Shown here one piece after another: positions 1 through 17,255 of a stretch of 17,284 nt of DNA. Under the pieces are notes generated by a model, which worked only from the letters and a program-made list of their open reading frames with translations, was not told where the DNA came from and did no database searches. This DNA is from Acidobacteriota bacterium (GTDB lineage: Bacteria > Acidobacteriota > UBA4820 > DSQY01). The DNA lies in contig JBMFSH010000046.1 of NCBI GenBank assembly GCA_049967655.1, positions 1 through 17,284 on the forward strand. The letters run 5' to 3'. Position 1 is the first letter of the stretch; the number at the start of each line of letters is the position of its first letter. The position numbers and the translations under genes were made by a program.

Positions 1-102
1 GGTGCGGGGGGGGGGCGATTGGGCACGCGGCCCCACTCCCGTCGCCAGCAGAAACACAATAAGACCGACGAATGCCACAACCGGATAACACGCTCTTCTC
101 AT
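1..102 (-). CDS. 5' end of a probable secreted protein (partial, runs off the window)
   Basis: Manual translation MRRACYPVVAFVGLIVFLLATGVGPRAQSPPPRT: basic N-terminus, hydrophobic core, possible cleavage PRA|QS. SD GGAGGGGGAG directly upstream, preceded by a sigma70-like promoter. Confidence 0.7.
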   Translation of the reverse strand, partial: MRRACYPVVAFVGLIVFLLATGVGPRAQSPPPRT

Positions 103-139
103 GACTCCCCCTCCTGGACGATGGTAACGGAACGATGGT

Positions 140-168
140 AGCGTAGCTAGGCAGGGGAGGATTGTCAA
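140..168 (-). promoter_or_regulatory. sigma70-type promoter for the partial gene at 1..102
   Basis: TTGACA (168-163), 17-nt spacer, TACGCT (145-140). Confidence 0.65.
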
Positions 169-303
169 CGGAAAAGCGCGGTAGGTGAGGAAAAGACCTG
201 GAGTGCGGATGCTCGCCGGGAACAGAGACGGGTGCGTTCGAATCGTCTCCTGGCCGGTCGGCTCTTCCGTGAGGAGATCAATCCGGGAGTTCTGTCCCCC
301 CCC

Positions 304-1137
304 TCAATGGGCCATCACCCCTTTCTTGCCGAGGCGGGAGGCGACGAAATCGATACCGAAGCCCGCCAGGAGCGCCACGAGCACCGAGAGGAGGCCGTAG
401 AGCGAACCGCGCTCGCGGGCGAGCTTGGCCATCCAGGCCGGGAAGCCCACCTCCTCGAGGACCAGTTGGGACGAGGTAGTAGCCTCGACGCCGCCCCCGC
501 GGCAGGCGACCACCTCGACCGTGTAGCTCCCCGGCGGCGCCTTCCTGGGCCAGTGGAACTCCAGCGAGTAGGGCACGCCGGCGGGACCGGCTGGGCCGAG
601 CTTCACCGGACCGGCCTCCTCCTGGTAGACGTTCTGGTTCTTCTTCATGGCGATGAAGTTAGCCCGGATGACCGGCTGGTCGAACCCCTCGGGGGAGACC
701 CGCATCCCTTCGCGGATGGCGGCCTCGTCGAGCTGGAGCTCGTCCAAGACCCCTCGGGCGAGAAGATCCCGGGCGGGGCGCGTGCTGAAGGAGAGGAAGA
801 GGGAGGGCGCGCCGGCGATGTGGACCTTGCCCCTGTTGATCCAGATGGGGCCCACGCGGGCCTTTCGATTGAGCTCCTCCTCGGCCTTCGGCCCCTTGAC
901 GGTCACCAGGAGCTCGGCGCCGGCCGGAGCGATGCCGGTGACGCGCACCTGGGCGCCGCTGTAGAAGGTCTCCAGCAGGATCCGCGAGGGGGAGAGGACG
1001 AGGGTGAGCGCCTGCGTGGCCTGGGCTTGGGCGGCCTGGGCTTGAGAGCGCTGGTCGGCACCCTGGCCCCGCATGGGCGCCGCGGACCAGGCGAGGGAGA
1101 GGAGGAAGATCCCCGACAAAGCTAGCGCGCGCTTCAT
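304..1137 (-). CDS. TIGR02186-like (Alph_Pro_TM) protein with signal peptide and C-terminal TM helix, 277 aa
   Basis: True start MKRALALSGIFLLSLAWSAA lies 2 nt after the tauE stop. Motifs FYSGAQV, RKARVGPIWIN, APSLF, APPGSYTV, VGFPAW and C-terminal TM LYGLLSVLVALLAGFGIDFV. This family typically follows TauE genes. Confidence 0.8.
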   Translation of the reverse strand: MKRALALSGIFLLSLAWSAAPMRGQGADQRSQAQAAQAQATQALTLVLSPSRILLETFYSGAQVRVTGIAPAGAELLVTVKGPKAEEELNRKARVGPIWINRGKVHIAGAPSLFLSFSTRPARDLLARGVLDELQLDEAAIREGMRVSPEGFDQPVIRANFIAMKKNQNVYQEEAGPVKLGPAGPAGVPYSLEFHWPRKAPPGSYTVEVVACRGGGVEATTSSQLVLEEVGFPAWMAKLARERGSLYGLLSVLVALLAGFGIDFVASRLGKKGVMAH

Positions 1138-1139
1138 GG

Positions 1140-2054
1140 TCAGTGCCCTTTCGCGTAGGAGAGCAGGCTGGAAGGGGGCAACACGAGCCCGATGGCCATC
1201 TTCACCATCACTAGAAGGACGATCGTGGCCAGCAGGATCTTGAGCTGGTCGCCCCTCAGGAGCTTGCCCACCCGGGCGCCGGCCTGTGCGCCGATGCTGG
1301 AGCCCACGGCCAGAAGGAGCGCCAGGACCAGGTCCACGGTGTGGTTGGTGTTGGCCTGCATGAAGGTGACGCCGGCGCAGGTGAAGAGGATCTGGAAGAG
1401 GTCCGTCCCCACCGCCACGTGCATGGGCATTCGGAGGAGGTAGACCATCATGGGCACCATGATGAAGCCGCCGCCCACGCCCATGATCGCGGCCAGGATC
1501 CCCACGAAGGCGCACAACAGGAAGGGAACGAAGATGGAGTGCTGGACCCCGGAGCGCGGAAAGTTCATCTGCATGGGCAGGCGGCCGAGGAAGCTTTGGC
1601 TGGCTCCTGGCTTGTGGGGCTTGTGGGCCAGCGCTCCCTGCCTGAGGCTCTGGAGGCTCTCCACGAACATGTAGCCCCCGACGGCGCCGAGCACCACCAC
1701 GTAGGTCAGCGTGATGACCAGGTCGGCGTTGCCCATGGCCCTGAGGGCCTTGATGATCCGAACGCCGACGGCGGCCCCCGCCAGTCCTCCTACGAGAAGG
1801 ATGCTGCCCAGCTTCACGTCCACGTTGCCCATCCGGAAGTGGGCCATTGCCCCCGAAGAGCTCGCCGCCACGATCTGACAGGAGTCCGAGGCGGCCGCCA
1901 CGGTGGGCGGGATGCCGATCATCATCAGGATGGGGGTGAGGAGAAACCCTCCGCCCACCCCGAACATCCCCGACAAGAAACCCACCAGGGCCCCGACCCC
2001 CACGAGGAGGAAGAGATTGATCGAAACCCCCGCCACAGGAAGAAAGATGGACAT
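1140..2054 (-). CDS. TauE/SafE family sulfite exporter (TSUP membrane protein), 304 aa
   Basis: Two repeats of the TSUP signature (GFLSGMFGVGGGFLLTP; GILAAIMGVGGGFIMVP), AVGTDLFQI, multiple TM segments. Confidence 0.92.
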   Translation of the reverse strand: MSIFLPVAGVSINLFLLVGVGALVGFLSGMFGVGGGFLLTPILMMIGIPPTVAAASDSCQIVAASSSGAMAHFRMGNVDVKLGSILLVGGLAGAAVGVRIIKALRAMGNADLVITLTYVVVLGAVGGYMFVESLQSLRQGALAHKPHKPGASQSFLGRLPMQMNFPRSGVQHSIFVPFLLCAFVGILAAIMGVGGGFIMVPMMVYLLRMPMHVAVGTDLFQILFTCAGVTFMQANTNHTVDLVLALLLAVGSSIGAQAGARVGKLLRGDQLKILLATIVLLVMVKMAIGLVLPPSSLLSYAKGH

Positions 2055-2126
2055 GCCCCCCCCGAGACACTCTCAAACCGGCCGTCCGGTGGCGGCCACC
2101 CGTCCGCGCGTCTTAGCGCGCCCCCC

Positions 2127-2936
2127 TCAGACGTCTAGGACCTGCACCAGGTCCGACATCTCCACCTGTTCCACCCCGGGCACCTTCCAGGCCACCTCGC
2201 GGATTTGCTCGAACTGCTCCTGGCCGCGCAGCTTGCCCCGGATGGTCACCACGCCGCCGTGCGCGGAGACGTCCAGCTCTAGGTCCAAGGTCGCCGCGTT
2301 GCAGACGAGGTTGGCCCTCACCTTGCTCGCCAGCGCGAGGTCCTCCATGGCCGCCAGGGACTCGGGCGTCTCTTGGAAGCACTTGAGGTTGGCCATGGTG
2401 GAAATGGTCTCGCAGGCCTCCTGGATGTCCATGTATTCGAGATTCAGCACCACGTCGTAGAGGGTGGGGTCGCCCCAGTTGACCCCGTACAGGTAGTGGG
2501 TCCACTTCGCCCTGTCTTGGTCCATGCGCGCCGTGTAGGCCATCGCCTCCGCGCGGTCGAGCTTGAGGCGGTCCTGGATCATGGCGAGGCGGAATTCCAC
2601 GGGCGCAATGATCCTGGCCCGCAGGACGTGGCTCACGCCCCTCAGGAGCAGGTGGCCGGCGTGGCCGTGATAGACGGCCTTGCCCCCCCGCACCTCCTCC
2701 GTGAGGGCCGCCTGGATCAGCGTGAGGTAGACGTACTTCCTGTGCTTGAAGCGGTCCCAGAAGGAGGGCGGCTTCTCCATGGCGTCGCGGAGCTCCTCCT
2801 GCGAGGCCCCGTAGGCCGCCGCCCGCTCCACGATCACGTCCCGGTCGATGCAGCGGTAGCCCAGCTTGTTGGCGAGACACTCCGCCAGGATCTTGCCGCC
2901 GGTGAATGAGCCACGGGATATGGTGATGACGGCCAT
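2127..2936 (-). CDS. cytidylate kinase-like family protein (Cytidylate_kin2) with C-terminal BON-like domain, 269 aa
   Basis: Start MAVITISRGSFTGGKILAECLANKLGY; GHAGHLLL, RARIIAP, YLYGVNWGDPTLYDVVLN. C-terminal DLALASKVRANL...LDVSAHGGVVTIRG...VPGVEQVE is BON-like. ATG at 2936 is preferred because the ORF-track TTG start at 3020 coincides with the -35 box. Confidence 0.85.
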   Translation of the reverse strand: MAVITISRGSFTGGKILAECLANKLGYRCIDRDVIVERAAAYGASQEELRDAMEKPPSFWDRFKHRKYVYLTLIQAALTEEVRGGKAVYHGHAGHLLLRGVSHVLRARIIAPVEFRLAMIQDRLKLDRAEAMAYTARMDQDRAKWTHYLYGVNWGDPTLYDVVLNLEYMDIQEACETISTMANLKCFQETPESLAAMEDLALASKVRANLVCNAATLDLELDVSAHGGVVTIRGKLRGQEQFEQIREVAWKVPGVEQVEMSDLVQVLDV

Positions 2937-2990
2937 CTTCCCCCCCCAACGCGCCGTTTTTGTAAGCGCTTCCCCCCGCCTTCCATCCAA

Positions 2991-3020
2991 AGTATAGGGA
3001 GGCCCAAAGCGCCAAGTCAA
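2991..3020 (-). promoter_or_regulatory. sigma70-type promoter for the cytidylate-kinase-like/tauE operon
   Basis: TTGACT (3020-3015), 18-nt spacer, TATACT (2996-2991). Confidence 0.7.
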
Positions 3021-3049
3021 CCAAAACGCCGGGGCGCCAGGCCGCTGCG

Positions 3050-3078
3050 TTGATTTCCCCCTCCCGGCGTGTTAGACA
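3050..3078 (+). promoter_or_regulatory. possible divergent promoter for cobA fusion
   Basis: TTGATT, 17-nt spacer ending TGt, TAGACA. The -10 lacks the conserved final T, so the match is weak. Confidence 0.35.
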
Positions 3079-3126
3079 AGTTCTCCCTCGCCAGCCAGGG
3101 CGGGGGCGCGAAGGGAAGGGACGGCC

Positions 3127-4827
3127 ATGGCGGGAGGGAAGGTCTATCTGGTGGGGGCCGGGCCCGGCCACCCGGAGCTGCTCACGCTGAAGGCCGCGGA
3201 GCTCCTCCGGACGGCCGACGTGGTGGTGTACGATCGGCTCATCCAGGAGGAGGTCCTCGCGCTCGCCAAACCCTCCGCCGAACGGCTCTACATGGGCAAG
3301 CCACTGGGCAAGCACGACTCCCGCCAGGAGGAGATCCACGAGCTGCTCGTGCGGAAGGCCCGGGAGGGCAAGATGGTGGTCCGCCTCAAGGGTGGAGACC
3401 CCTTCGTGTTCGGCCGCGGAGGGGAAGAGGCGGAGTACCTGGCGGACCACGGCGTCCCCTTCGAGGTGATCCCCGGCGTCTCCTCGGCCCTGGCCGCCCC
3501 GCTGAGCGCTGGCATCGCCGTCACCCACCGGGACGCCGCCTCGTGCGTGGCCATCGTAACGGGGCACGAGGCCAAGGAGGAGGAGAGCCGCCTCGACTGG
3601 GCGGCCCTCAGCAAGCTGGAGACGCTGGTCTTTCTGATGGGGGTCCACAACGTGGGCCGGATCGCGAAGCGGCTCACGGATCACGGGCGCTCCCCCAATA
3701 CCCCCGTCGCCATGATCCAGATGGCCTTCTGGCACGACGAGCACGTGGTGGTGGGAACCCTGGCGACCATCGCCTCCGAAGTGGAGCGCAGCGGCATCCG
3801 CCCGCCCGCCACCCTCGTGGTGGGCGAGGTGGTTCGGCTCCACGAAAAGCTCAAGCACGCCAGCCGCGATCTGAAGCGCCGGGCCGATGGCAGTTCGCGC
3901 TTCGAGCCTGCCCCGGCCCCCGACCAGTTGCTCCGCCTCTCCACCGCGGGCCTGGGCAGCCAGGTTCTCGGCTTCGCCCTGGAGACCGGCCTGTTCGACC
4001 TCCTGGAGAGCCCGCGCAGCGCTGAAGAAGCGGCGCGGTCTCTCGGCCTGAACGCTTCAGCCACGAAGGAGATCCTGGACGTGCTCGTGGCCCTGGGGGT
4101 GCTCGAAGCGCTGGAGGGAGGGTACCGGAACCTCGAACTGGCCACCCGCTACCTGAGGGCCGATTCGGCCCAGAGCCTTCGCCCGGCCCTTCTCCTTCAG
4201 ACCAGCCAGTCGTCCAATTGGGAGACCCTCGCGCGATACGCCCGTGACGGCCGGCGCGACTTCGTCCCGAGCAGCGATGACCGCGCCCACTCGGAATCCT
4301 GCGAGGCGCTGGCGACCTTCGCCGCCCCCGCCGTGGCCGAGCGGCTGTCCTTGGGCGGCCGCGGCCCGGTGCTGGTGCTCGGATGGGGCTCGGAGGCCTA
4401 CCGCGCCGCGCTGTCCGCCCGCTGGCCCGGGATCGAGGTGGTGGCGCGCAATCCCTTCGAGGGGCCGGACCAGGCCCTCAAGTTCTTGAGCCCCGTGCCC
4501 CAAGGCAGCGGCCCCTTCGGCGCCGCCATCCTTTCGGGCCTGCTCGCCTCCTGCGACCGCGGACAGGTCCAGAAGCTCCTGGAACACGCGGCGAAGGCCC
4601 TCCGGCCCGGGGGCCTGCTCGTCCTCCACGACGCCTTTCTCCCCGTGAGCGTGCTGCCTCCGCCCGAGGTGGTGCTGGGGGCTCTCGGCCGGCACATCAC
4701 CCGAGGCGGCTGTCGGACCTGGTCCATCGACCGGCTCCAGGAGGCCCTCGACGCCCTGGGCTTCGGTGCCCTCGCGAGCGCGGCCCTGCCCGCCGGAACG
4801 GTGCTGGTCACGGCCGAGAAGGGGTAG
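3127..4827 (+). CDS. cobA: uroporphyrinogen-III C-methyltransferase (SUMT) fused to an O-methyltransferase-like dimerisation + Rossmann region, 566 aa
   Basis: N-terminal ~240 aa: VYLVGAGPG, VVYDRL, VVRLKGGDPFVFGRGGEE, VIPGVSS, VTHR, VTGH, LVFLMG. C-terminal ~300 aa: GLFDLL...SAEEAARSLGL...LDVLVALGVL...YRN and ALRPGGLLVLHD. SD GGGAAGGG upstream. Confidence 0.9.
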   Translation: MAGGKVYLVGAGPGHPELLTLKAAELLRTADVVVYDRLIQEEVLALAKPSAERLYMGKPLGKHDSRQEEIHELLVRKAREGKMVVRLKGGDPFVFGRGGEEAEYLADHGVPFEVIPGVSSALAAPLSAGIAVTHRDAASCVAIVTGHEAKEEESRLDWAALSKLETLVFLMGVHNVGRIAKRLTDHGRSPNTPVAMIQMAFWHDEHVVVGTLATIASEVERSGIRPPATLVVGEVVRLHEKLKHASRDLKRRADGSSRFEPAPAPDQLLRLSTAGLGSQVLGFALETGLFDLLESPRSAEEAARSLGLNASATKEILDVLVALGVLEALEGGYRNLELATRYLRADSAQSLRPALLLQTSQSSNWETLARYARDGRRDFVPSSDDRAHSESCEALATFAAPAVAERLSLGGRGPVLVLGWGSEAYRAALSARWPGIEVVARNPFEGPDQALKFLSPVPQGSGPFGAAILSGLLASCDRGQVQKLLEHAAKALRPGGLLVLHDAFLPVSVLPPPEVVLGALGRHITRGGCRTWSIDRLQEALDALGFGALASAALPAGTVLVTAEKG

Positions 4828-4849
4828 CGCGAAAAGCGGAGGCAGACCA

Positions 4850-4875
4850 ACCACAGAGACACGGAGGCACAGAGG
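4850..4875 (+). repeat. 26-bp octamer-repeat element, copy 1 (ACCACAGAGACACGGAGGCACAGAGG)
   Basis: 24/26 identical to 10284..10309; internal 8-nt period. Confidence 0.8.
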
Positions 4876-5009
4876 ATGGGAATGTGGGACTACCGGCGGA
4901 TTTCGCCGCTACCCATCAGCAAGCTAGATGGTCCGCACCTATCGGTCCGGAGCAAGGCACCTCTTTGGCCGCTCAAGCCTCCATTGACCGGGCCTGAGGG
5001 GTGCATCCC

Positions 5010-5078
5010 ATGACGGTTCTTCTGGCCCTTGCCTTGTTCTGCCCCTCACTCCTCACTCCCCACTCCTCCCTGCCATGA
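5010..5078 (+). CDS. putative 22-aa leader ORF MTVLLALALFCPSLLTPHSSLP overlapping the sirC start (ATGA)
   Basis: SD-like GAGGGG at 4996-5001, 8 nt before ATG 5010. TGA 5076-5078 overlaps sirC ATG 5075-5077. sirC has no SD of its own. Confidence 0.45.
   Translation: MTVLLALALFCPSLLTPHSSLP
5044..5067. repeat. heptamer tandem repeat (CCTCACT/CCCCACT x~3.5)
   Basis: cctcact cctcact ccccact cct, directly visible. Confidence 0.7.
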
Positions 5079-5719
5079 GCTACCTCGTCAACCTCTCGAT
5101 TCAAGGGAAGAGGGCCGTGGTCGTAGGCGCCGGCGCCGTGGCGCTGCGCAAGGCGCAGGGGCTCCTGGAGGCGGGGGCGCGCGTCACGGTGGTGGCGCCG
5201 GAGGCCTGCGACGGCCTGCTCGCCCTGGCCGCCGAGGGCCGCCTCGAACTGCGCCTGAAACCCTACGATGCCGGAGAGCTGAAAGGGGCTGCCCTCGTCC
5301 TCGCCGCCACCGACAACGAGGCGGTCAACGCCAGCGTCTCGGCCGACTGCTCCCGCCTCGGCCTGCTCGTCAACGTGTCCGACCGCCCCGCCCTCTGCAC
5401 CTTCACGCTCCCCGCCGTGGTCCGCCGCGGCGATCTCACCCTCGCCGTCACCACCGAGGGGCGTTGCCCCGCCTTCGCCAGGGCCCTTCGCGAGGAGCTG
5501 GAGGGGCGGTACGGCGAGGCTTACGGGGAGGCGCTCGACCTCATGGGGCGCTTGAGGGACGCCATGCTCTCCGAGGGGTGGGAGAGCGCCCGCATCCAGA
5601 AGGCCCTCGCGGGGCTCTACGCGGATGGAATCGTGGCAGTCATCCGGTCCCGGGATACCGAAGCTCTCGCCGCCTTTCTCCGCCACCGTCTCGGTCCCGA
5701 TTTTCCTCTGCCTTCGTAA
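5075..5719 (+). CDS. precorrin-2 dehydrogenase / sirohydrochlorin ferrochelatase (SirC/Met8/CysG N-terminal family), 214 aa
   Basis: NAD-binding VVVGAGAVALRKA, VTVVAP, LAATDNEAVN, LVNVSDRPALCTFTLPAVVRRGDLTLAVTTEG. Confidence 0.9.
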   Translation: MSYLVNLSIQGKRAVVVGAGAVALRKAQGLLEAGARVTVVAPEACDGLLALAAEGRLELRLKPYDAGELKGAALVLAATDNEAVNASVSADCSRLGLLVNVSDRPALCTFTLPAVVRRGDLTLAVTTEGRCPAFARALREELEGRYGEAYGEALDLMGRLRDAMLSEGWESARIQKALAGLYADGIVAVIRSRDTEALAAFLRHRLGPDFPLPS

Positions 5720-5740
5720 ATTCTTCCCATGATCGAATGA

Positions 5741-5764
5741 AGGGCGGGCCATGCGGCCCGCCCT
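5741..5764. terminator. hairpin between convergent sirC and gcvPB, probable terminator
   Basis: Perfect 10-bp stem AGGGCGGGCC-atgc-GGCCCGCCCT; weak U-tail on the minus strand. Confidence 0.6.
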
Positions 5765-5792
5765 GGGTTGAACGGTTGGCGGGGAGTGAGCT

Positions 5793-7262
5793 TTACCCTT
5801 TCGCGCTCTCGGGCTTGTAGGTCAGCCTGGGGTTCCTCGCGGCGGCGACTTCGTCGAGGCGGCGGCGGTAGGCGGTGTGGGGGGCCGACTTGACGAGGTC
5901 GGGCCGCTCCCTGGCCTCTTGCAGAATGGCGCGGACGGCCTCGACAAAGCGGTCCAGCTCCTCCACGGGCTCCGTCTCCGTGGGCTCGATCATGAGGGCC
6001 CCGTGGACGATGAGGGGGAAATAGACCGTCGGGGGATGAAAGCCGTAGTCGATGAGGCGCTTGGCCAGATCCAGCGTGGTCACGCCGTTGGGCAGCTCCT
6101 TGTCGCAGAAGACCACCTCGTGGAGCGTGGGGCCGTCGAAGCCTAGCTTCAGGAGGGGCAGGAGCTGGGCGCGGAGGTAGTTGGCGTTGAGCACGGCCAG
6201 CTCGGAGGCGCGCTTCAGCCCTTCGCCGCCCAGGGTCTCGATGTAGGCGAGGGCCCGCACGAGGACGAGGAAGTTCCCGTAGAAGGCCTGCACCTTGCCG
6301 ATGCTCTTGGGCCTCTCGTGGTCCCAGGCGTAGCGGCCCTCCCGCTGCACGAGGACGGGCTTGGGCAGGAAGGGTTCGAGGTGCGCCTTGCAGACCACCG
6401 GTCCAGCCCCTGGGCCGCCGCCGCCGTGCGGGGTGGAGAAGGTTTTGTGGAGGTTGATGTGCATCACGTCTGCGCCCCAGTCGCCGGGGCGGGTGATCCC
6501 CATCAGCGCGTTCAGGTTGGCGCCGTCCACGTAGACCAGCGAGCCGTTGGCGTGCAGGAGCCGGCAGATCTCGGCGATGTTCTTTTCGAAGATGCCCAGC
6601 GTATTGGGCACCGTGAGCATGATGCCGGCCACGTCTGGGCGCATCCGGGCTTTGAGGGCATCGAGGTCCACGCAGCCGTCGGCGCCGCTCTTGATCTCCT
6701 CCACCTCGTAGCCGGCGAAGTGGGCGCTGGCGGGGTTGGTGCCGTGGGCCGAGTCGGGGATGAGCATGATCCGGCGGGCGTCACCCCTGTCCTCCAGGCA
6801 GGCGCGGATGAGCTGGATGCCCGTGAATTCGCCCTGGGCGCCAGCAGCGGGCTGAAGGGTGCAGGCGTCCATGCCCGAGACGGCGCAGAGGTGGCGCTGA
6901 AGCACGGCCACCAGCTCCAGGGCGCCCTGGGTCATGGACTCGGGCTGCATGGGATGAAGGCGCGCGAAGCCTTCGAGCCGGGCTACCTCCTCGTTGATTT
7001 TGGGGTTGTACTTCATGGTGCAGGAACCGAGGGGGTAGAGGCCCATGTCCACGGCGTAGTTGGTGGTGGAGAGGCGCGTGAAGTGCCGGACCACGTCCAC
7101 CTCGCTCAGTTCGGGCAGGAGCGCCGGAGCTTCGCGCCGGGCCAGCGGACCCAGCAGGGAGGCGGGATCGGCCGCAGGGACGTCGCATGCGGGCAGGGAG
7201 GCGCCGATGCGCCCCGGGTGGTCCTTCTCGAAGATCAGCTTCTCCTCGATGGCGTGGCTCAT
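5793..7262 (-). CDS. gcvPB: glycine dehydrogenase (decarboxylating) subunit 2, 489 aa
   Basis: YPLGSCTMKYNPK, QPAAGAQGE, SAHGTNPASA, PLP-lysine motif HINLHKTFSTPHGGGGPG, MIEPTETE. ATGA overlap with gcvPA. Confidence 0.97.
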   Translation of the reverse strand: MSHAIEEKLIFEKDHPGRIGASLPACDVPAADPASLLGPLARREAPALLPELSEVDVVRHFTRLSTTNYAVDMGLYPLGSCTMKYNPKINEEVARLEGFARLHPMQPESMTQGALELVAVLQRHLCAVSGMDACTLQPAAGAQGEFTGIQLIRACLEDRGDARRIMLIPDSAHGTNPASAHFAGYEVEEIKSGADGCVDLDALKARMRPDVAGIMLTVPNTLGIFEKNIAEICRLLHANGSLVYVDGANLNALMGITRPGDWGADVMHINLHKTFSTPHGGGGPGAGPVVCKAHLEPFLPKPVLVQREGRYAWDHERPKSIGKVQAFYGNFLVLVRALAYIETLGGEGLKRASELAVLNANYLRAQLLPLLKLGFDGPTLHEVVFCDKELPNGVTTLDLAKRLIDYGFHPPTVYFPLIVHGALMIEPTETEPVEELDRFVEAVRAILQEARERPDLVKSAPHTAYRRRLDEVAAARNPRLTYKPESAKG

Positions 7263-8605
7263 GAGAGGCCTCCCAGGACGTCCGCCATCCGATCGCAGGC
7301 CGCCTTGCTCACGCGTTCGGTGGCGCAGAGGAGATGGCCGCCCGCCAGCTCGGGATAGTGGCGGGACAGGTCGTAGCCGCTCAGGAGGTCCACCGCAGAG
7401 GCGGCCTCCGAGACCCTCGATCCCTCCGCGGGGAGCTTCACGGCGAACTCGTTGAAGGTGGGAGAGGTAAAGAGGGGCCGCACGCCCTTTTCCGCCAAGC
7501 GGGCCTTGAGGTACTCGGCCTTGCTCAGGTTGTGGATGGCCAGCTCCCGCAGCCCCTTCCGGCCTACCAGCGACAGGTAGATGGTGGCGGCCAGCATGCA
7601 GAGCCCCTCGTTGGTGCAGATGTTGGAGGTGGCCTTTTCGCGACGGATGTGCTGCTCGCGGGTGGTGAGGGTGAGCACGAAGCCCCGCCGGCCGTCGGCG
7701 TCCACGGTCTGGCCGCAGATGCGGCCCGGGAGCTGGCGCATGTGCTGGGTCCGGGTGGTCATGAAGCCGAGGTAGGGACCGCCGTAGCCCAACGGAAGGC
7801 CGAAGGAGCGGGCCTCGCCGCAGACGATGTCGGCGCCCTGGCGCCCGGGAGGCTCCAGGAGGGCCAGGGAGAGGGCCTCGCTCACCACGACCCCCAGCAG
7901 GGGGCGGCGCTCCTGCGGCAGGGCCGAGGCGACGGCTTTCACGTCCTCCACCACGCCGAAAAAGTTAGGCTGGCCCGCGAGGACGGCGCAGACCTCCGCG
8001 TCGAGCAGGCCCCTCAGCGCGCCGAGGTCAAGCCGGCCGTCCGGTCCGAAGGGGATCTCCTCCACCGTGAGGCCGATGTGCCTCAGGTAGGTGCGCAGGA
8101 CCTCGCGGTAGGCGGGGTGGAGCGAGCGCGCCACGAGCACGCGCCGCCCCTTGTGGATGCGGTGGGCCATGAGGGCCGCCTCGGCGGTGGCCGAGCCGCC
8201 GTCGTAGAGGGAGGCGTTGGAGACGTCCATGCCCGTCAGGTCGGCCATCATGGTCTGGAACTCGAAGATGGCCTGGAGCGTCCCCTGTGCCATCTCGGGC
8301 TGGTAGGGGGTGTAGGCCGTGTAGAACTCGCTGCGCAGCAGGAGCTGGTCCACAGCCGCCGGCGCGTAGTGGTCGTAGGCGCCCGCGCCGAGGAAGCAGG
8401 GGCGGCAGGTGGCGGAGCTGTTGCGGATGGAGCGGATCACGAACCGCTCCCGCAGCTCCGGCTCCGGAACCGCTGGGGGCAGGGCGAGCGGCCCCTTGAG
8501 CCGCACCTCGGACGGAATGGAGGCGAAGAGGTCCTCCACCCCCTTCACGCCGGCCGCGGCGAGCAGGACTTGGGCGTCCTCGTCACTGCATGGGAAATAG
8601 CGCAT
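7259..8605 (-). CDS. gcvPA: glycine dehydrogenase (decarboxylating) subunit 1, 448 aa
   Basis: FLGAGAYDH, EFYTAYTPYQPEMAQGTLQAIFEFQT, NASLYDG, REQHIRREKATSNICTN. Confidence 0.97.
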   Translation of the reverse strand: MRYFPCSDEDAQVLLAAAGVKGVEDLFASIPSEVRLKGPLALPPAVPEPELRERFVIRSIRNSSATCRPCFLGAGAYDHYAPAAVDQLLLRSEFYTAYTPYQPEMAQGTLQAIFEFQTMMADLTGMDVSNASLYDGGSATAEAALMAHRIHKGRRVLVARSLHPAYREVLRTYLRHIGLTVEEIPFGPDGRLDLGALRGLLDAEVCAVLAGQPNFFGVVEDVKAVASALPQERRPLLGVVVSEALSLALLEPPGRQGADIVCGEARSFGLPLGYGGPYLGFMTTRTQHMRQLPGRICGQTVDADGRRGFVLTLTTREQHIRREKATSNICTNEGLCMLAATIYLSLVGRKGLRELAIHNLSKAEYLKARLAEKGVRPLFTSPTFNEFAVKLPAEGSRVSEAASAVDLLSGYDLSRHYPELAGGHLLCATERVSKAACDRMADVLGGLS

Positions 8606-8614
8606 GGCAGATCC

Positions 8615-9004
8615 TCAGTGGGTGACTTCGGCGACGTACTTCTCGTAGGCCGCCGCGTCCATGAGCCCGCCGAGGGCGGCCGGATCGGAGAGGGTCATCT
8701 TCAGGATCCAGCCCTTGCCGTAGGGGTCCTGGTTCAGAAGCTCCGGGTGGTCGGCGAGTTCTGGGTTCACCTCGACCACCGCGCCGGAGAGGGGCGCGTT
8801 CACCTCGGAGACCGCTTTCACGCTCTCCACGCTGCCCATGGGGCTGCCCGCGCTAAGCGAGGTACCGGGCGCGGGCGCCTCCACGAAAACGATGTCCCCC
8901 AGCTCGTGCTGGGCGAAGTCCGTAATGCCCACCGTTCCTTTGTTGCCCTCCACCCGGATCCACTCGTGGGTCTGGGTGTATTTCAGGTCGCTCGGATTGC
9001 TCAT
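8615..9004 (-). CDS. gcvH: glycine cleavage system H protein, 129 aa
   Basis: Start MSNPSDLKYTQTHEW with SD GGAGGG; GITDFAQHELGDIVFVE, lipoyl-lysine VESVKAVSE, NQDPYGKGW. Confidence 0.97.
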   Translation of the reverse strand: MSNPSDLKYTQTHEWIRVEGNKGTVGITDFAQHELGDIVFVEAPAPGTSLSAGSPMGSVESVKAVSEVNAPLSGAVVEVNPELADHPELLNQDPYGKGWILKMTLSDPAALGGLMDAAAYEKYVAEVTH

Positions 9005-9102
9005 GGGTCCCTCCGGTCGCTTGGATTGCGGCGCACCGGGCGCCGCACTGGGTTTCCTCTCGGTGATGCCGGCGAGCGGGCACGGCCGGCCGGCGTCCCT
9101 CC

Positions 9103-10209
<1,107 letters not shown>

Positions 10210-10230
10210 GGTCCCCTCCGTAAGCACCCC

Positions 10231-10259
10231 ATCTTAGGACCGAACCGGAGGAGGGTCAA
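10231..10259 (-). promoter_or_regulatory. sigma70-type promoter of the gcv operon
   Basis: TTGACC (10259-10254), 17-nt spacer, TAAGAT (10236-10231), 21 nt from the gcvT ATG. Confidence 0.75.
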
Positions 10260-10283
10260 ACGGAGTTCGAAAAGAAAAAGATC

Positions 10284-10309
10284 ACCACAGAGACGCAGAG
10301 GCACAGAGG
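10284..10309 (+). repeat. 26-bp octamer-repeat element, copy 2 (ACCACAGAGACGCAGAGGCACAGAGG)
   Basis: 24/26 identical to 4850..4875. Confidence 0.8.
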
Positions 10310-10319
10310 GGAAAGAGGC

Positions 10320-10355
10320 AAAAAATAGTAAGAGCCGGTGGCTTCGTCCATCGGC
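10320..10355 (-). terminator. possible intrinsic terminator after mqnC
   Basis: Imperfect stem GCCGATGG-acgaag-CCACCGGC followed by TCTTACTATTTTTT on the minus strand. Confidence 0.4.
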
Positions 10356-10371
10356 GCACCGATCTCAGCAC

Positions 10372-11466
10372 TCACTCCTCGGCGGGCTCGTAGAGGGTGC
10401 GCCGCTTCTTGGGGATGAAGCCCGCGTCGGCGATGAGGCGCCGCAGCTCCTCTTCATTGGTGCTGTTGCGGCAGCCGGCGCTGGCCACCACGTTCTCCTC
10501 GATCATGATGGAGCCCATGTCGTTGGCACCGAAGTGGAGCGAAACCTGTCCCACCTTGAGCCCCTGGGTGACCCAGCTCGCCTGGATGTTGTCCACGTTG
10601 TCCAGGTAGATCCTCGACAGGGCCAGCACGCGCAGGTAGTCCACGCCGGTGGCGGGCGCATCCTGCAGGGGGGTCGTCGCCCCCGGCTGGAAGGTCCAGG
10701 GGATGAAGGCCGTGAAGCCGCCCGTCTCGTCCTGGAGCTCCCGCACGTGTTGGAGGTGGATCAAGATGTCCTGGGAGGATTCTATGGAGCCGAACATCAT
10801 GGTCGCCGTGGTCCTGAGCTTCTGCCGGTGAGCCTCCCGGTGCACGGCGATCCACTCCGTGACCGTGGCCTTGCCCCTGGCCATCCGCTGGCGCACGCCC
10901 TCCGAGAGGATCTCGGCGCCGCCGCCGGGGATGCTCCCGAGCCCCACCGCCTTCAGGCGCGCGATGACCTCGGCCACGGGCATCTTATAGAGCTTGGAGA
11001 AGAAGGTGATCTCCGGGGCCGAGAAGCCGTGGATGTGGACCTTCGGGAAGCGGGCCTTCATGGCACCCAGCATCTCCTCGTAGAAGCCGAAGGGCAGCTC
11101 GGGGTTGTGGCCGCCCTGCAGGAGGATGCCGGTGCCTCCGAGGTCCACCGTCTCCTGGATCTTCTGGAGGAGCGTCTCAATCGTGTGGACGTAGCCCTCC
11201 GCGTCGCCGGGCCGCCGGTAGAAAGCGCAGAAGGTGCAGTTCGCCACGCAGACGTTGGTGTAGTTGATGTTGCGGTCCACGATGTAGGTGGCCACGTTGT
11301 CGGGGTGTTTGCGCGCCCGGACGGCGTCGGCCGCCTGGGCGAGCTCTAGGAAGGGGGCCTGCTCCAGGAGCAGCAGCCCCTCCTCGGGGGTCAGTCGGCC
11401 TCCGTCGAATACCTTATCGAGAACCGCCGGCACCTCCATCGGGTGCGGCGCAGCCGAGGCGTTCAT
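10372..11466 (-). CDS. mqnC: cyclic dehypoxanthinyl futalosine synthase (radical SAM), 364 aa
   Basis: DRNINYTNVCVANCTFCAF (CxxxCxxC), LLQGGHNP, SIPGGGAEIL, TATMMFG, FIPWTFQP, QASWVTQG, IEENVVASAG; adjacent to mqnA; SD AAGGAGG. Confidence 0.93.
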   Translation of the reverse strand: MNASAAPHPMEVPAVLDKVFDGGRLTPEEGLLLLEQAPFLELAQAADAVRARKHPDNVATYIVDRNINYTNVCVANCTFCAFYRRPGDAEGYVHTIETLLQKIQETVDLGGTGILLQGGHNPELPFGFYEEMLGAMKARFPKVHIHGFSAPEITFFSKLYKMPVAEVIARLKAVGLGSIPGGGAEILSEGVRQRMARGKATVTEWIAVHREAHRQKLRTTATMMFGSIESSQDILIHLQHVRELQDETGGFTAFIPWTFQPGATTPLQDAPATGVDYLRVLALSRIYLDNVDNIQASWVTQGLKVGQVSLHFGANDMGSIMIEENVVASAGCRNSTNEEELRRLIADAGFIPKKRRTLYEPAEE

Positions 11467-12223
11467 CGGGTATCTCCTCCTTCAGGGCCAGGGCGATGAA
11501 CCGGCGGAGCCCCACCACCTCGGCTCCGTCGAGCGGGTAGCTTAGGTGTTCGGTGAGGTAGCGCCGGAGGGTTTCGGGGGGAAGGTCCAAGGTCCGCGCA
11601 AACTCGGCCACGATCTCCTCCAGATGCTCCATGCCGTAAGCGTGGGACCTCGCCAGCACGGTCCTGGTCTCGGGGGTGCAGGCGCTCTTCCGTCCCGCCC
11701 AGACGGCGAAGACGAAGGGGAGGCCCGTCTTCCGGCTCCAGAGCTCGGCCAGGTCGTAGCGGTGCAGCCCCTTCAGGGCGCGGGGCAGGGTGAGGGCCGG
11801 GTCGCCGATCACCAGGGCGGCCTCGTCGGGGCCGAGGGCGGCTGGCGGTTCGGCGACCTCTCGGTAGATGGGCTCCTGGGATGCGAGATCGGCCAGGAGG
11901 AGGCGCGTGAGCATCTGGGACGTCCTGCTGGCGGCGTGGAGATAGACCGTTCGAACGCCCGCCGCCTCGCCCCCGCAGAGAAGGAGCACGGAGGTGACCT
12001 CCCGGCGGGCGCCCACGCACAACGGCGCGGCGAGCACCAGGTCGCGCGAGCGGGCGAACTCGATGGAGGGAATGAGCCCCAGATCCGCCTCCCCCTTAAG
12101 GACCCGCTCGGCGCAGCGCGAGGGAAGGTCGAAGGAGACCTCCCACTCCGGCGGATGGAGGCCGGCCTTCAGCCCCCAGTAGAGCGGAGCGGCGTTCAGG
12201 AAGCCCACGGCTGAGACCTTCAC
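11414..12223 (-). CDS. mqnA: chorismate dehydratase, MqnA/MqnD/SBP family, 269 aa
   Basis: GTG start overlapping the cinA TGA. VGFLNAAPL, LIPSIE, VTSVLL, SRTS, LVIGDPAL, YDLAELW..TGLPFVFAVW. Confidence 0.9.
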   Translation of the reverse strand: MKVSAVGFLNAAPLYWGLKAGLHPPEWEVSFDLPSRCAERVLKGEADLGLIPSIEFARSRDLVLAAPLCVGARREVTSVLLLCGGEAAGVRTVYLHAASRTSQMLTRLLLADLASQEPIYREVAEPPAALGPDEAALVIGDPALTLPRALKGLHRYDLAELWSRKTGLPFVFAVWAGRKSACTPETRTVLARSHAYGMEHLEEIVAEFARTLDLPPETLRRYLTEHLSYPLDGAEVVGLRRFIALALKEEIPDERLGCAAPDGGAGGSR

Positions 12224-13467
12224 GGCGCTGCCTCTCCGATGTGCGACCAAAGGAGGTAGAGGGCGTAGTTCGCGCTCAGCTCCATCACCGATGCCCTGTC
12301 CAGCGGGAAGAAGAGCTTGCGCGCCCACTCCCCCCCGGGTGTGCCGGCGGCCACCCAGACCGTGCCCTCCGGCTTCTCGGGCGAACCCCCCGTGGGGCCG
12401 GCCACGCCGGTGGTGGCTACGGCGCAGGAGGCGTTGAAGCGGGCCCTGGCCCCCCGCACCATGGCCCGAGCCGTCTCCTCGCTCACGGCACCATGCAGAT
12501 CCAGGATCCCCGGAGGAACCCCCAGCAGGTCAATCTTGGCCTCGTTGGCGTAGGCCACGACGCCCCCCTGGTAGTAACGCGAGGCCCCCGGCACGGCCAC
12601 GATCTTCCGGCTCACCGCGCCCCCCGTGAGGGACTCGGCGCAGGCCAGGCTCCAGCCCTTGGCCAGCAGACGCTCTCCCAGGGACTCGGCCAGGCTCTCG
12701 CCCTCCAGGCTCACGAGGTGGCGGCCGTAGCCCTCGCGGAGAGCCTGCCGCACCCGTGTCTCCAGCGCGGGTAGTTTTTCGGCCGGCGGAGAGGTGAGGG
12801 TGAAGGTGATGGCGAGGACGCCCAGGGAGGGCAGGATGGAGACGGCCACGCCGGGCAGGCCGTACCAGGGCTTGAGCACCGGCTCCGCCATGGACTCCGC
12901 GAGTCCAGCCACGGTGGCCCTCACCACCACGACCTCAGGACGCCGAGGGTAAAGGGTCTTCAACCTTGGGATGACGCGGCTCTCCAGCATCTCCTTAAAT
13001 TCGGTGGGCACGCCGGGTAGCAGCACCAGGTCGCCTCCCCCCGCTTTGAGCCAGGAGCCGCAGGCCAGCCCCTTCCCATTCGGCACCGACTCGGCGCCGT
13101 CCACGACGAGCGCCTGCCTACGGTTCACCTCGGTGAGGGGGTAACCTCGGGACTCTAAGCGTCGGCGGATCTCCTCGATCCATTCGGGATCCTCGTGGAT
13201 GCCCACCCCGAGCAGGCGCGCGGCCCCCTCGCGCGTCAGGTCGTCGCCCGTGGGGCCCAATCCGCCGGAGGTGATCACCACGTCACAGGTCGCCAGCGCC
13301 GCCCGCATGGCCGCCTCGATGGCCTCCACGCGGTCCTCCACCCGCGCGAGCAGGACGACGGGGATTCCGGCGGCGGCCAGGCGCGCGTGCGCCGCCGGGC
13401 CGTTGGCATCCGGCCTGGAGGGATCGGTCATCTCTGATCCGATGAGCAGCAGGGCGGCCTTAGCCAT
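12220..13467 (-). CDS. cinA: CinA family protein (MocF-like domain + NMN deamidase PncC domain), 415 aa
   Basis: IGSE, SGGLGPTGDDLTRE, LPGVPTE; C-terminal AESLTGG, PGASRYY, YANEAK, GAVSEETA, TGVAGPTGGSPEKPEGTV. ATG 13467 has SD GGAGG. Confidence 0.9.
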   Translation of the reverse strand: MAKAALLLIGSEMTDPSRPDANGPAAHARLAAAGIPVVLLARVEDRVEAIEAAMRAALATCDVVITSGGLGPTGDDLTREGAARLLGVGIHEDPEWIEEIRRRLESRGYPLTEVNRRQALVVDGAESVPNGKGLACGSWLKAGGGDLVLLPGVPTEFKEMLESRVIPRLKTLYPRRPEVVVVRATVAGLAESMAEPVLKPWYGLPGVAVSILPSLGVLAITFTLTSPPAEKLPALETRVRQALREGYGRHLVSLEGESLAESLGERLLAKGWSLACAESLTGGAVSRKIVAVPGASRYYQGGVVAYANEAKIDLLGVPPGILDLHGAVSEETARAMVRGARARFNASCAVATTGVAGPTGGSPEKPEGTVWVAAGTPGGEWARKLFFPLDRASVMELSANYALYLLWSHIGEAAP

Positions 13468-14167
13468 GGCCTCCGCCTCCTTCCTCCGCGACGCCGCTGG
13501 CCGGAGCGACGGCAAAGACGCCGAGGTAGTCGTCGCGACCCTCCGCTTGCAAAAGCCTCGCGATGGCCTCCATGGAGCGCCGGGAGATGGTTTCCGGGAG
13601 CATGTCCCCAGGGAAGGCGATGGGTTCGCCCACGAGCAGCGTCACCCGGCCGGGCCTGGGATAACGCCTCCCCGGCGGATAGGTTTCCCGGGTACCCACG
13701 ATGGCCACCGGCACCACGGGCACCCCGGCCCGGGAGGCGAAGACGCCGAGGCCGGGCTGGGGATCGAGGAGGCCGCCGGTGTCCGACCTCCGGCCCTCCG
13801 GGAAAATGGCCACGGCCCGGCCGTGCTTGAGAAGGCCCAGGATCCTCCGCACCGCCGAGAGCTGGAAGGCCGCGCCGGCCTTCACCGGGACCACGTCCAT
13901 GAGGCGCGAGAAGGTCTTGACGACGGGTTTCTCGAACTGGTCCTCCGCCATGACGAACCAGAGGCGCCTGTGAAGGAAGCACCCCAAGATGAGCGGGTCC
14001 GCGAAGGAGAAGTGGTTCGCCGCCAGGAGGAAGGCGCCCCGCGGCGGGACCCGCTCGCCCCCCTTCACCCTGACGCGGAAATAGAGCCTGAAGAGCGGCC
14101 AGAAGAAGGCCTTCGCACCGACGTATGAAAGGGCCTTCACTGCGGATTTCCAATCTCGCCCCGCCAT
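13460..14167 (-). CDS. plsC: 1-acyl-sn-glycerol-3-phosphate acyltransferase family (PlsC-like), 235 aa
   Basis: NHFSFAD (HxxxxD), IFPEGRRS, VPVVPVAI. ATG 14167 has SD GGAGGAG. Confidence 0.88.
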   Translation of the reverse strand: MAGRDWKSAVKALSYVGAKAFFWPLFRLYFRVRVKGGERVPPRGAFLLAANHFSFADPLILGCFLHRRLWFVMAEDQFEKPVVKTFSRLMDVVPVKAGAAFQLSAVRRILGLLKHGRAVAIFPEGRRSDTGGLLDPQPGLGVFASRAGVPVVPVAIVGTRETYPPGRRYPRPGRVTLLVGEPIAFPGDMLPETISRRSMEAIARLLQAEGRDDYLGVFAVAPASGVAEEGGGGHG

Positions 14168-14184
14168 GGCTCCTCCGGCCCAGT

Positions 14185-14214
14185 AGCGTACCTCTTGCGA
14201 CCCGGCTGGGACAA
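14185..14214 (-). promoter_or_regulatory. possible sigma70 promoter for plsC-cinA-mqnA-mqnC
   Basis: TTGTCC (14214-14209), 18-nt spacer, TACGCT (14190-14185). Confidence 0.5.
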
Positions 14215-14245
14215 GGGCGCGAAGCGCACTCGGTGGCAGAGCTGG

Positions 14246-14362
14246 AGGGGCAGGGGACGGGGGACAGGGGACACCGCCCGTTGGTTTCGGCATCTCCTCA
14301 TCTCCTCATCACGTCGTTTCATGGGGACAAGGGACAGGGGACAGGAGGATGAGGGATGAGAG
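14246..14362. repeat. cluster of short tandem repeats: GGGGACA-type heptamers (two blocks), CATCTCCT octamers, GGATGAG heptamers
   Basis: caggggacgggggacaggggaca; catctcctcatctcctcatc; ggggacaagggacaggggaca; ggatgagggatgag. Confidence 0.75.
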
Positions 14363-14388
14363 AGAGCGGGGATTTGATGAATGGCTCT

Positions 14389-14458
14389 GTAGGAGGCCTC
14401 TCCCGAGGCCGATGCGCCGTCCCCTCTCCACCCGTCGCGCTCTGGAGAGCGCACCTAC
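14389..14458. repeat. GTAG-family REP doublet (REPIN/BIME-like)
   Basis: GTAGGAGGCCTCTCCCGAGGCCGAT (+, 14389-14413) and GTAGGTGCGCTCTCCAGAGCGCGAC (-, 14458-14434), inverted, 20 nt apart. Confidence 0.75.
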
Positions 14459-14537
14459 GGGCATCACGGGCGAGCAGGGGGCGGTTTTTATGCCTTCCGA
14501 ACCTTTTTCCTCGCCTCCACTCCTCCTCCACTCCTCC

Positions 14538-14566
14538 TGGACAGCCCACCCCCGCACCTCTACAAT
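14538..14566 (+). promoter_or_regulatory. sigma70-type promoter for asnB
   Basis: TGGACA, 17-nt spacer, TACAAT, followed by SD GGGGAGG and ATG 14583. Confidence 0.7.
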
Positions 14567-14582
14567 GCTCGGGGAGGCGCCC

Positions 14583-16457: not shown

Positions 16458-16515
16458 GGCCGGTCCAAGCCTTCGGCCAGAGCGTTCGCCTCCAGATATG
16501 GCGGGCAGACGGCGG

Positions 16516-16551
16516 AAAAGGGGCGGCGCCCGAGAGGCACCGCCCCTTTTT
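16516..16551. terminator. bidirectional intrinsic terminator
   Basis: AAAA-GGGGCGGCGCC-cgaga-GGCACCGCCCC-TTTTT between convergent genes. Confidence 0.85.
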
Positions 16552-16575
16552 CTTGGTGCGACCCGGAGAAAAAAC

Positions 16576-17190: not shown

Positions 17191-17255
17191 GGTGTCACCT
17201 CCTCACCTCCTTGTACGCAGGGGGAAGCGGGGAGGTTTGCCGGGGCCGCCCCCCT

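Follow-up and report, generated by a model that had tools for sequence, protein, structure and literature searches.

We analysed a window of 17,284 nucleotides from an acidobacterial genome (contig JBMFSH010000046.1 of assembly GCA_049967655.1, positions 1 to 17,284), in which a single open frame on the + strand (3127-4827) encodes a protein of 566 amino acids (aa). Its N-terminal half (the N-domain) is a SUMT (CobA), and its C-terminal half (the C-domain) has the fold of a family-2 O-methyltransferase (OMT) in which the S-adenosylmethionine (SAM) site is degenerate. The gene is a real, conserved and undescribed variant of the SUMT linked to the dissimilatory sulfite reductase (dsr) genes in one acidobacterial clade, and it carries a methyltransferase-dead accessory domain. 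The features of the gene and of its downstream neighbor are given below with the evidence used to place them.

3127-4827, + strand: whole gene, 566 aa, DsrWa-type SUMT (CobA) joined to a degenerate family-2 OMT fold (open reading frame, Pfam, TIGR01469)
3136-3843, + strand: SUMT/CobA domain, aa 4-239, with the GAGPG, YDRL, RLKGGDP and LMG motifs intact (TIGR01469, Foldseek, alignment)
3853-3921, + strand: conserved linker, aa 243-265 (alignment of 121 rows)
3910-4158, + strand: winged-helix OMT dimerisation domain, aa 262-344, with invariant R270 and with G275, which is Phe/Tyr in intact relatives (PF08100, alignment)
4279-4824, + strand: Rossmann-like domain without strand 3, aa 385-566 (secondary structure of the model, fold searches)
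4300-4305, + strand: C392-E393, where C392 replaces a Met found in 87% of intact relatives (alignment)
4372-4395, + strand: degenerate SAM motif I, LVLGWGSE, aa 416-423, DxGxGxG in intact relatives (alignment)
4450-4515, + strand: NPF at the DLP site, followed by a variable loop that stands in for helix C and the GD motif of strand 3 (segment lengths, alignment)
4546-4548, + strand: A474 at the position of the catalytic His (alignment)
4690-4734, + strand: putative re-lined pocket helix and loop with R522, H/R523, R526, C529, R530, W532 and R536 (pocket placement inferred from the alignment)
5075-5719, + strand: downstream gene of the SirC/Met8p/CysG-B type, DsrV-like (Pfam, NCBIfam, alignment)

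The identity of the N-domain is clear from profile and structure searches. TIGR01469 (CobA) matched aa 4-239 with 307 bits against a cut-off of 185 and was the best of the tetrapyrrole methylase models, those for CobM/CbiF, CobI, CobJ and CbiE all falling below their own cut-offs on this domain; the Pfam model TP_methylase matched aa 5-215 (E 6e-57). The domain has the class III fold with GxGPG, YDRL, RLKGGDP, T-x-H and M present, and it is 42-47% identical to the solved SUMT/CobA/CysG-A/NirE enzymes (1s4d, 2ybq, 1pjq). With a full-length model as the query (pLDDT 85.8, pTM 0.78), Foldseek returned SUMT structures first (NirE, CysG and SUMT 1s4d). The linker that follows is conserved, with R247, L249, R251, R252, F259, P261, P263 and P265 each kept in at least 90% of the 121 rows, and the pLDDT of the full-length model drops to 52-58 across aa 251-270.

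In the second half, the OMT dimerisation model PF08100 matched aa 262-344 above its cut-off (E 8e-11), Methyltransf_23 gave only a weak match (aa 460-546, E 0.013), and Methyltransf_2 had no match in the 566-aa protein at E<=0.05. For aa 257-566, AlphaFold2 with 120 sequences as input gave a confident model (pLDDT 93.9, pTM 0.89) with both parts of the family-2 OMT fold, a winged-helix dimerisation domain and a Rossmann-like domain, the latter with a sheet of six strands that lacks strand 3. Its closest structural match with VIA-align was the family-2 OMT 5i2h (Z 25.1, root-mean-square deviation (rmsd) 3.0, 290 residues aligned). The modeled monomer lies about 15 Å rmsd from most other OMT chains, possibly an artefact of modeling the monomer only. 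When the two halves were predicted as a complex, the score was 0.01 (mark 0.32), which counts neither way.

An earlier annotation made from the letters alone (the sequence-only reading) had described an open frame with an intact SUMT domain followed by a winged-helix and Rossmann OMT fold, all of which these searches bore out. The motifs it had picked out are also in place, namely LVLGWGSE, NPF (aa 442-444, 4450-4458), LAS (aa 473-475, 4543-4551) and ALRPGGLLVLHD (aa 491-502). The same annotation had related the second domain to BchU, the C-20 methyltransferase of bacteriochlorophyll c, and that link was not supported. Against the C-domain model BchU ranked 27th with Foldseek (18% identity) and 24th with VIA-align (Z 14.3 vs 25.1 for 5i2h; rmsd 13.8, 243 aligned), and it was absent from the 27 sequence matches of the C-domain profile. 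BchU is thus a distant member of the group and not a sister of the C-domain.

To follow the degeneration of the C-domain residue by residue, we compared 125 family members with 106 intact OMT relatives in a colinear alignment. The Asp of motif I occurs in 97% of the intact relatives, and no member has Asp or Glu at the matching position (aa 417); a DxGxGxG string is found anywhere in 1/125 members vs 85/106 intact relatives. The middle Gly of the motif is Trp or Tyr in 96% of members, and the last (third) Gly has become Glu, Asp or Gln. The Asp of strand 2 is Asn in 97% of members (aligned by eye), and the segment from strand 2 to strand 4 has a median of 22 aa (14-27) vs 40 (24-43) in intact relatives, about 18 aa shorter, with helix C and the strand-3 GD segment deleted. 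The strand-2 acid and the strand-3 GD(F) are the ribose and adenine contacts of these enzymes. Finally, the His after strand 4 is present in 92% of intact relatives and in none of the 125 members. Because DsyB, an MTHB methyltransferase, is active and likewise has no His at the end of strand 4, this residue is not universal in the active family, and it is the loss of several SAM contacts together that argues for inactivity. Motif I, the strand-2 acid, the strand-3 GD and the catalytic His of active family-2 OMTs are all missing here. Since no member retains the motif-I Asp or the catalytic His, and the GD of strand 3 is deleted, methyl transfer by the C-domain is very unlikely, as the sequence-only reading had proposed.

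The family has also gained residues. Relative to intact relatives, bulkier residues have become Gly at two positions (Phe/Tyr to G275, Phe to G518) and Arg has appeared at three (Met to R522, Thr to R526, Glu to R536), with further changes from Met to C392, Leu to H/R523, Gly to C529 and Tyr to W532. Both pocket Met residues of the intact relatives are replaced. Several of the family-specific residues are nearly fixed, including R270 (125/125), R522 and R536 (123/125 each), R530 (117/125), the acids D502 (125/125) and E393 (118/125, 94%), and W532, which is invariant. From plant OMT structures we take the re-lined positions to face the acceptor pocket. The alignment therefore suggests that the former acceptor pocket has been re-lined with near-invariant Arg, Gly and Cys, a pattern compatible with the tetrapyrrole binding that the sequence-only reading had suggested.

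The fusion is neither a singleton nor an assembly chimera, which the sequence-only reading had named as ways in which its proposal could fail. A search with aa 250-566 gave 163 matches among 7,999 scored candidates. The SUMT core motif was present in 111 of the best 120 of these homologues, the remaining 9 beginning in the SUMT tail or the linker, and the G+C content is even across the junction of the two halves. Among the matches listed, all homologues with a named source are from Acidobacteriota. A profile search of 1.84 billion representatives yielded 30 proteins at E<=1e-30, of which the first 28 were family members or short pieces of them; beyond these, full-length matches fell to about 124 bits and look like intact OMTs. 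No free-standing C-domain was shown by a search for shorter proteins, which gave 15 matches, all on contigs of at most 3.5 kb. We considered whether these might be split or free-standing domains and rejected this, as the 5 of the 15 that were examined start inside the domain and their contigs are short. In a tree inferred with the mixture model off and the bootstrap not fully settled, the C-domain family formed one clade on a long stem (length 1.05, support 100/100).

The C-domain is under purifying selection. Its ratio of nonsynonymous to synonymous substitution rates (dN/dS, Nei-Gojobori) was 0.12-0.25 (median 0.20), compared with 0.04-0.13 (median 0.056) for the N-domain in the same six pairs, which are the 6 of 66 pairs with usable dS and all come from four genomes of the window's own genus. 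The proposal that the C-terminal half evolves neutrally therefore does not apply. Over 121 rows, 25% of C-domain positions were at least 90% conserved vs 55% in the SUMT. The frames are intact in nearly all carriers, across at least two families. Single frameshifts in the fused gene at loci L012 and L016 are possibly sequencing errors, and a partial domain match in genome G401 is due to a contig end that cuts off the remainder.

We then surveyed 401 genomes of the phylum that were at least 90% complete, scoring five candidates per genome for the domain (one of the 401, G023, is an unpublished genome and was counted in the denominator only). The domain profile exceeded 300 bits in 18 genomes, the next best match being 100 bits. 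All 18 carriers have dsrA, which is present in 36 of the 401 genomes overall; 17 of the 18 belong to one family, that of the window, and are hence not independent. Within this family, 17 genomes have both the domain and dsrA and 3 have neither, and those 3 also lack CobA (29 genomes were given for this check in the CobA survey). In the genus of the 18th carrier (11 genomes), the domain occurs in 7, each of them with dsrA; another 2 have dsrA without the domain, and the last 2 lack both. In the two samples combined, 24/24 carriers have dsrA. Genes of the dsr, apr or qmo groups lie inside the fetched stretch at 9/18 loci. With this co-occurrence and these clusters nearby, the N-domain has the marks of DsrWa, which has been named as a SUMT homologue possibly making siroheme (10.1101/197269 = PMC6018796).

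In the window's own genome (99% complete), the dsr/apr/qmo cluster is on contig C22, dsrN is on C8 and the fused gene is on another contig. Homologues of dsrABD, dsrL, dsrC, dsrK, aprBA, qmoAB and dsrN were found, as were hemD, hemE and a ferrochelatase gene; AhbD was below its cut-off, and CbiX and CbiK were not found. A tblastn search of this genome with the N-domain retrieved only the fused locus and thus no second SUMT or tetrapyrrole methylase. In the product of the downstream gene (5075-5719), the loop that identifies bifunctional dehydrogenase/chelatases (DAPK in CysG; PMC7018833) reads D-R-P, with its Asp and Pro retained. The protein is likely a dehydrogenase and ferrochelatase, in which case siroheme synthesis would need nothing from the C-domain. 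A chelatase role for the C-domain, considered when CbiX and CbiK were not found, was rejected as unnecessary given this neighbor and the existing haem ferrochelatase.

The domain is missing from half of the dsrA genomes in the sample (18/36), and all 18 of these have another form of CobA: stand-alone, CobA-HemD, CysG (SirC-CobA) or SirC-CobA-HemD-like. From 48 distinct SUMT domains we inferred an unrooted tree by quick search, without a mixture model; in it, 25 fused and 4 stand-alone SUMTs formed one clade (SH-aLRT 100). The four stand-alone DsrWa lie within the fused clade, one of them as sister to a fused SUMT (support 91), and the fused or stand-alone label needs four changes on this tree, at least two of them forced by starred branches. 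No remnant of the C-domain was found behind these four genes, and one of them ends within the conserved linker. Two genomes that are 100% complete and belong to the same genus as a fused carrier have a stand-alone DsrWa in the dsr cluster, and dsrA is near-identical within the genus where the domain was lost. The unrooted SUMT tree cannot itself tell gain from loss; with the C-domains all in one long-stemmed clade and no free form found, one gain followed by several losses is the simpler reading. Since sister lineages keep dsrAB with a stand-alone DsrWa, the C-domain is accessory and dispensable rather than essential. The strict dsrA link and the domain-less sister lineages are context beyond the sequence-only reading.

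Whether the C-domain is contacted by AFWH, a SUMT motif specific to this clade, was also considered and rejected because the stand-alone members keep similar residues. Separately, dsrA-bearing Acidobacteriota at L071-L075 and L077-L079 have a SirC-CobA fusion with a short HemD-like C-terminal tail that looks degenerate by eye. They may represent another SUMT lineage tied to dsr, one in which an additional domain has eroded.

For the window's own stretch, a search of sequencing runs listed no RNA run containing it and DNA runs with small shares only. Expression data are available for one homologue, at locus L013 in the metagenome-assembled genome CO124, an organism that switches between oxic and sulfate-reducing states (PMC10564751). 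In the supplement of PMC10564751 it is gene 1373 (1,671 nt, two genes from aprB), annotated with dimerisation and tetrapyrrole methylase domains. The RPKM (reads per kilobase per million mapped reads) values given there are 1.0, 0, 0 and 0, then 1.9, 0.9, 0.8 and 1.5, with a log2 fold change of -4.10 (adjusted p 0.0023); that of aprB has the same sign (-6.17). Because the text of that paper says that dsrAB rose under anoxia, we took the second set as anoxic. With the condition assigned in this way from the text, gene 1373 appears to be transcribed along with the apr genes under anoxia. The supplement also lists a CobA-HemD gene in CO124 with lower counts. The main text does not mention gene 1373, and 'methyltransferase' and 'siroheme' have 0 occurrences in it.

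Taken together, the domain order, the motif loss, the purifying selection and the co-occurrence with dsrA are observed. On this basis, we tentatively favor, at a little less than an even chance, a reading of the protein as a predicted dsr-linked SUMT (DsrWa/CobA) of sulfite-/sulfate-reducing Acidobacteriota whose dead OMT-fold half may be an accessory tetrapyrrole-holding module. From family knowledge, the N-domain would convert uroporphyrinogen III to precorrin-2, the neighboring Met8p/CysG-B-type protein would oxidise precorrin-2 and insert iron, and the siroheme would go to DsrAB after amidation by DsrN, to which this step has been ascribed (PMC6018796). The acceptor pocket of the C-domain would be widened by the Gly at 275 and 518 and made cationic by the Arg at 522, 526 and 536 together with invariant R270, so that it might bind the carboxylate-rich, oxygen-labile precorrin-2, or sirohydrochlorin or siroheme. 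CysG holds these tetrapyrroles in charged, Arg-containing pockets, and precorrin-2 is oxygen-sensitive (PMC7018833). The C-domain could then shelter its ligand and hand it on or feed back, and in this way tune the flux at the branch point with HemE, which draws on the same substrate. The domain would be useful but not required, since several sister lineages dropped it.

The branch point deserves a comment. Desulfovibrio-type reducers, unlike carriers of the fused gene, are not known to keep HemE; because the carriers keep it, siroheme and haem would compete for uroporphyrinogen III. However, hemE is present in 18/18 carriers and also in 14/18 dsrA genomes without the domain, so the branch-point argument fails to explain who has the domain. 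A tie between the domain and the haem route was rejected on these counts and on AhbD, which was above its cut-off in 0/40 genomes, as neither discriminates.

Several results weigh against a tetrapyrrole-holding module. The size and charge of the pocket and the positions of its Arg residues are placed by alignment, the net charge of the C-domain is like that of the intact relatives (-3.2 vs -2.6), and the conserved Arg could be salt-bridged to E393, D502 and E514, plugging the pocket. BchU is only distantly related, and no tetrapyrrole gene context is common to the closest intact relatives (6 loci). The domain is also absent from half of the dsrA genomes, stand-alone DsrWa nest within the fused clade and occur in complete genomes of a carrier's genus, and the transcript levels of gene 1373 are low (RPKM 0.8-1.9).

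A narrower version of the favored reading, which we consider quite unlikely, makes the dead OMT fold a carrier that delivers siroheme or sirohydrochlorin to DsrN and apo-DsrAB and feeds back on the fused SUMT. If true, sulfate reducers that tolerate oxygen would have a chaperone and sensor dedicated to the cofactor of dissimilatory sulfite reductase. The C-domain might instead bind no ligand and act purely as a scaffold, by forming dimers, by making the SUMT more stable or by docking it onto a partner (the Met8p-type enzyme, DsrN or apo-DsrAB), its conserved charges being structural or surface contacts. The dimerisation domain and linker are conserved as well as the pocket is, the conserved acids (E393, D502, E514, D266) equal the basic residues in number, the pTM of 0.78 for the full-length model hints at an ordered arrangement of the halves, and the domain is dispensable in sister lineages. 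Yet the substitutions cluster at acceptor and SAM-flanking positions of the intact relatives (M392, M522, F275, F518, T526, G529), which a mere scaffold need not hold at 84-100%, and the SirC-type gene adjoins the fused gene at only 7/18 loci, all from the window's own family. We regard a pure scaffold as unlikely, though it is the strongest of the competing explanations. It is improbable, in our view, that the domain is a thiol or metal sensor. In that case C392, C476 and C529, together with H501 and H523, would surround the former active site, where they would ligate a metal or the iron of haem or siroheme or else react with O2 or sulfide, thereby switching the activity of the SUMT in a facultative organism that alternates between oxygen and sulfate as electron acceptors. 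The Cys are frequent (C392 in 105/125, C529 in 108/125, C476 in 75/125, with 392 and 529 both Cys in 90/125), two of them replace a conserved Met and Gly, and CO124 does alternate between oxic and sulfate-reducing states (PMC10564751). However, no Cys is invariant, all three occur together in only 50/125 members, the CO124 homologue has Ser at both positions matching 392 and 529, and its gene is already under transcriptional control.

The OMT scaffold could also have acquired a new chemistry, modifying a siroheme intermediate or an unrelated anion without SAM, in the manner of AlpH and of the PdxI-type pericyclases in other pathways. AlpH is OMT-like and SAM-independent, its emptied SAM site holding substrate, and PdxI is a second case (PMC10477347). 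The invariant or nearly invariant polar residues R270, D502, W532, E393 and R522 and the long stem branch (1.05) would fit such neofunctionalisation. Against this, the steps to siroheme appear to be covered by the N-domain and the neighbor, with amidation by DsrN, and the loss of the domain in one genus with near-identical dsrA is hard to fit with an obligatory change to the cofactor; we judge a new chemistry to be distinctly improbable. Least probable of all, to the point of being very doubtful, are two further readings: a C-domain that is decaying as a passenger and has no present role, or one that remains a SAM-dependent methyltransferase of a non-canonical kind. For the passenger, C-domain dN/dS is about four times that of the N-domain and the domain has been lost repeatedly, but dN/dS of 0.12-0.25 in 6/6 pairs, frames that are mostly intact in at least two families and 25% of positions at least 90% conserved rule out neutral decay. 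For an active enzyme, G419, G421, Y425, N442 and D502 are kept and DsyB works without the strand-4 His, but four separate SAM contacts have been lost together and a bulky Trp or Tyr sits in the glycine loop.

Each half of the protein has known counterparts. Like the DsrWa described in PMC6018796, the N-domain is a SUMT linked to dsr genes; the two DsrWa given there are 298 and 272 aa, a stand-alone length, whereas the fused protein adds a domain of 310 aa. The C-domain shares its fold with the family-2 (class I) OMTs (Plim_1147 5i2h, RedM, DsyB, ASMT, BchU, and uncharacterised bacterial proteins such as the ferredoxin-OMT fusions) and, unlike them, has its motif-I Asp, third Gly, strand-2 Asp, helix C/GD, His and pocket Met replaced. 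AlpH (8h3t) and PdxI/HpiI are also OMT folds in which a degraded SAM site is put to another use (PMC10477347), and AlpH and HpiI appear in the fold list of the C-domain model. These proteins are free-standing and belong to secondary metabolism, whereas the C-domain is fused to a primary cofactor enzyme, is more degraded and has gained Arg; AlpH keeps a DxCGGxG loop and its pocket is acidic (PMC10477347). In the siroheme route CysG, too, contains a fused SUMT, some of whose residues assist the active site that acts next (PMC7018833). Its partner is an N-terminal catalytic dehydrogenase/chelatase; here that enzyme has a gene of its own, and what is fused to the SUMT is a dead-looking, unrelated fold at the C-terminus.

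We found no description of the fusion in the full-text literature, a search whose coverage leaves out most subscription journals, and the available text of PMC11237513 and PMC7242693 holds nothing on it. The sequence-only reading had called the architecture unrecognised, and that assessment stands for what is now a conserved family. The Acidobacteriota that have dsr genes are putative sulfate reducers with a wide distribution, at least one of which changes over between oxygen and sulfate respiration (PMC10564751). A conserved dead domain tied to dsrA offers a concrete protein, easy to express, for asking how the cofactor supply of DsrAB is protected, regulated and delivered, with the natural stand-alone DsrWa of the same genus as controls. 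If tetrapyrrole binding proved true, this would be a clear example of how primary cofactor synthesis has turned an OMT fold into a module that holds a ligand; otherwise, the domain still is a specific marker for one clade of acidobacterial dsr clusters (24/24 carriers with dsrA).

The searches also turned up other OMT fusions. Proteins of 565-587 aa in 9 clusters, one labelled Bryobacteraceae, join HemD to an intact OMT (P0224, P0270-P0277, L096:77-1819). Here a tetrapyrrole enzyme has been fused a second time, independently, to an OMT of the same broad subfamily. In the tree the HemD-OMT proteins nest among 2Fe-2S ferredoxin-OMT fusions, away from the fused SUMT family, and we rejected descent of the latter from HemD-OMT fusions. 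A metagenome scan for the context of the HemD-OMT genes yielded a single full-length locus, which spans 2.9 kb and was uninformative. The ferredoxin-OMT proteins form a large family of about 453 aa (thioredoxin-like 2Fe-2S ferredoxin with an intact OMT; P0285-P0388), from Bryobacteraceae/Terriglobia where the source is named, and three of their loci have no neighbors in common (L082:8060-9409, L083:7764-9116, L084:7411-8769). P0206, P0245 and P0255 combine OMT domains, some with a degenerate motif I, with a Cys-rich C-terminal domain, and are possibly another set of dead OMT fusions.

In the window's family, the fused gene lies between the SirC-type gene and a divergent group (304-2936, - strand, in the window) that includes genes for a cytidylate-kinase-like protein, which has a BON domain in the window, TauE, an Alph_Pro_TM protein, a DVU0150-family protein and PEP-synthase-like proteins. 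This group travels with the fused gene or the dsr cluster at L001-L006, L008, L012, L013, L015 and L016 (several of L001-L006 are the same genomes as members of this family in the 401-genome sample), and the kinase-like gene is present at 11/18 loci. A sigma-70-like site lies at 3020-2991 on the minus strand; a consensus scan found no promoter or terminator for the fused gene.

Elsewhere, a gene for a MarR-type regulator follows the fused gene at 6 loci (5 Bryobacterales and L015), directly before aprBA or dsrAB (L011:1423-2028, L013:11224-11856, L014:11252-11893, and also at L015 and L016), and is a candidate regulator of acidobacterial sulfate reduction. Two conserved unnamed genes (one of about 95 aa with Cys motifs, the other of about 270 aa) lie between aprA and qmoA or dsrA in several genomes, for example at L013:14304-15426 and on contig C22 of G000 (21370-22393), with no NCBIfam match at 1e-10. 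The remaining neighbors in the window (5793-13515, - strand; 14349-16457, + strand) are ordinary genes, among them those for glycine cleavage, the futalosine pathway of menaquinone synthesis (MqnC above its cut-off, and MqnA-like), CinA and an asparagine synthase-like protein. Two 26-nt intergenic repeats that are 92% identical lie at 4850-4875, just 3' of the fused gene, and at 10284-10309, between the mqnC-like gene and gcvT, and are probably copies of a dispersed intergenic element.

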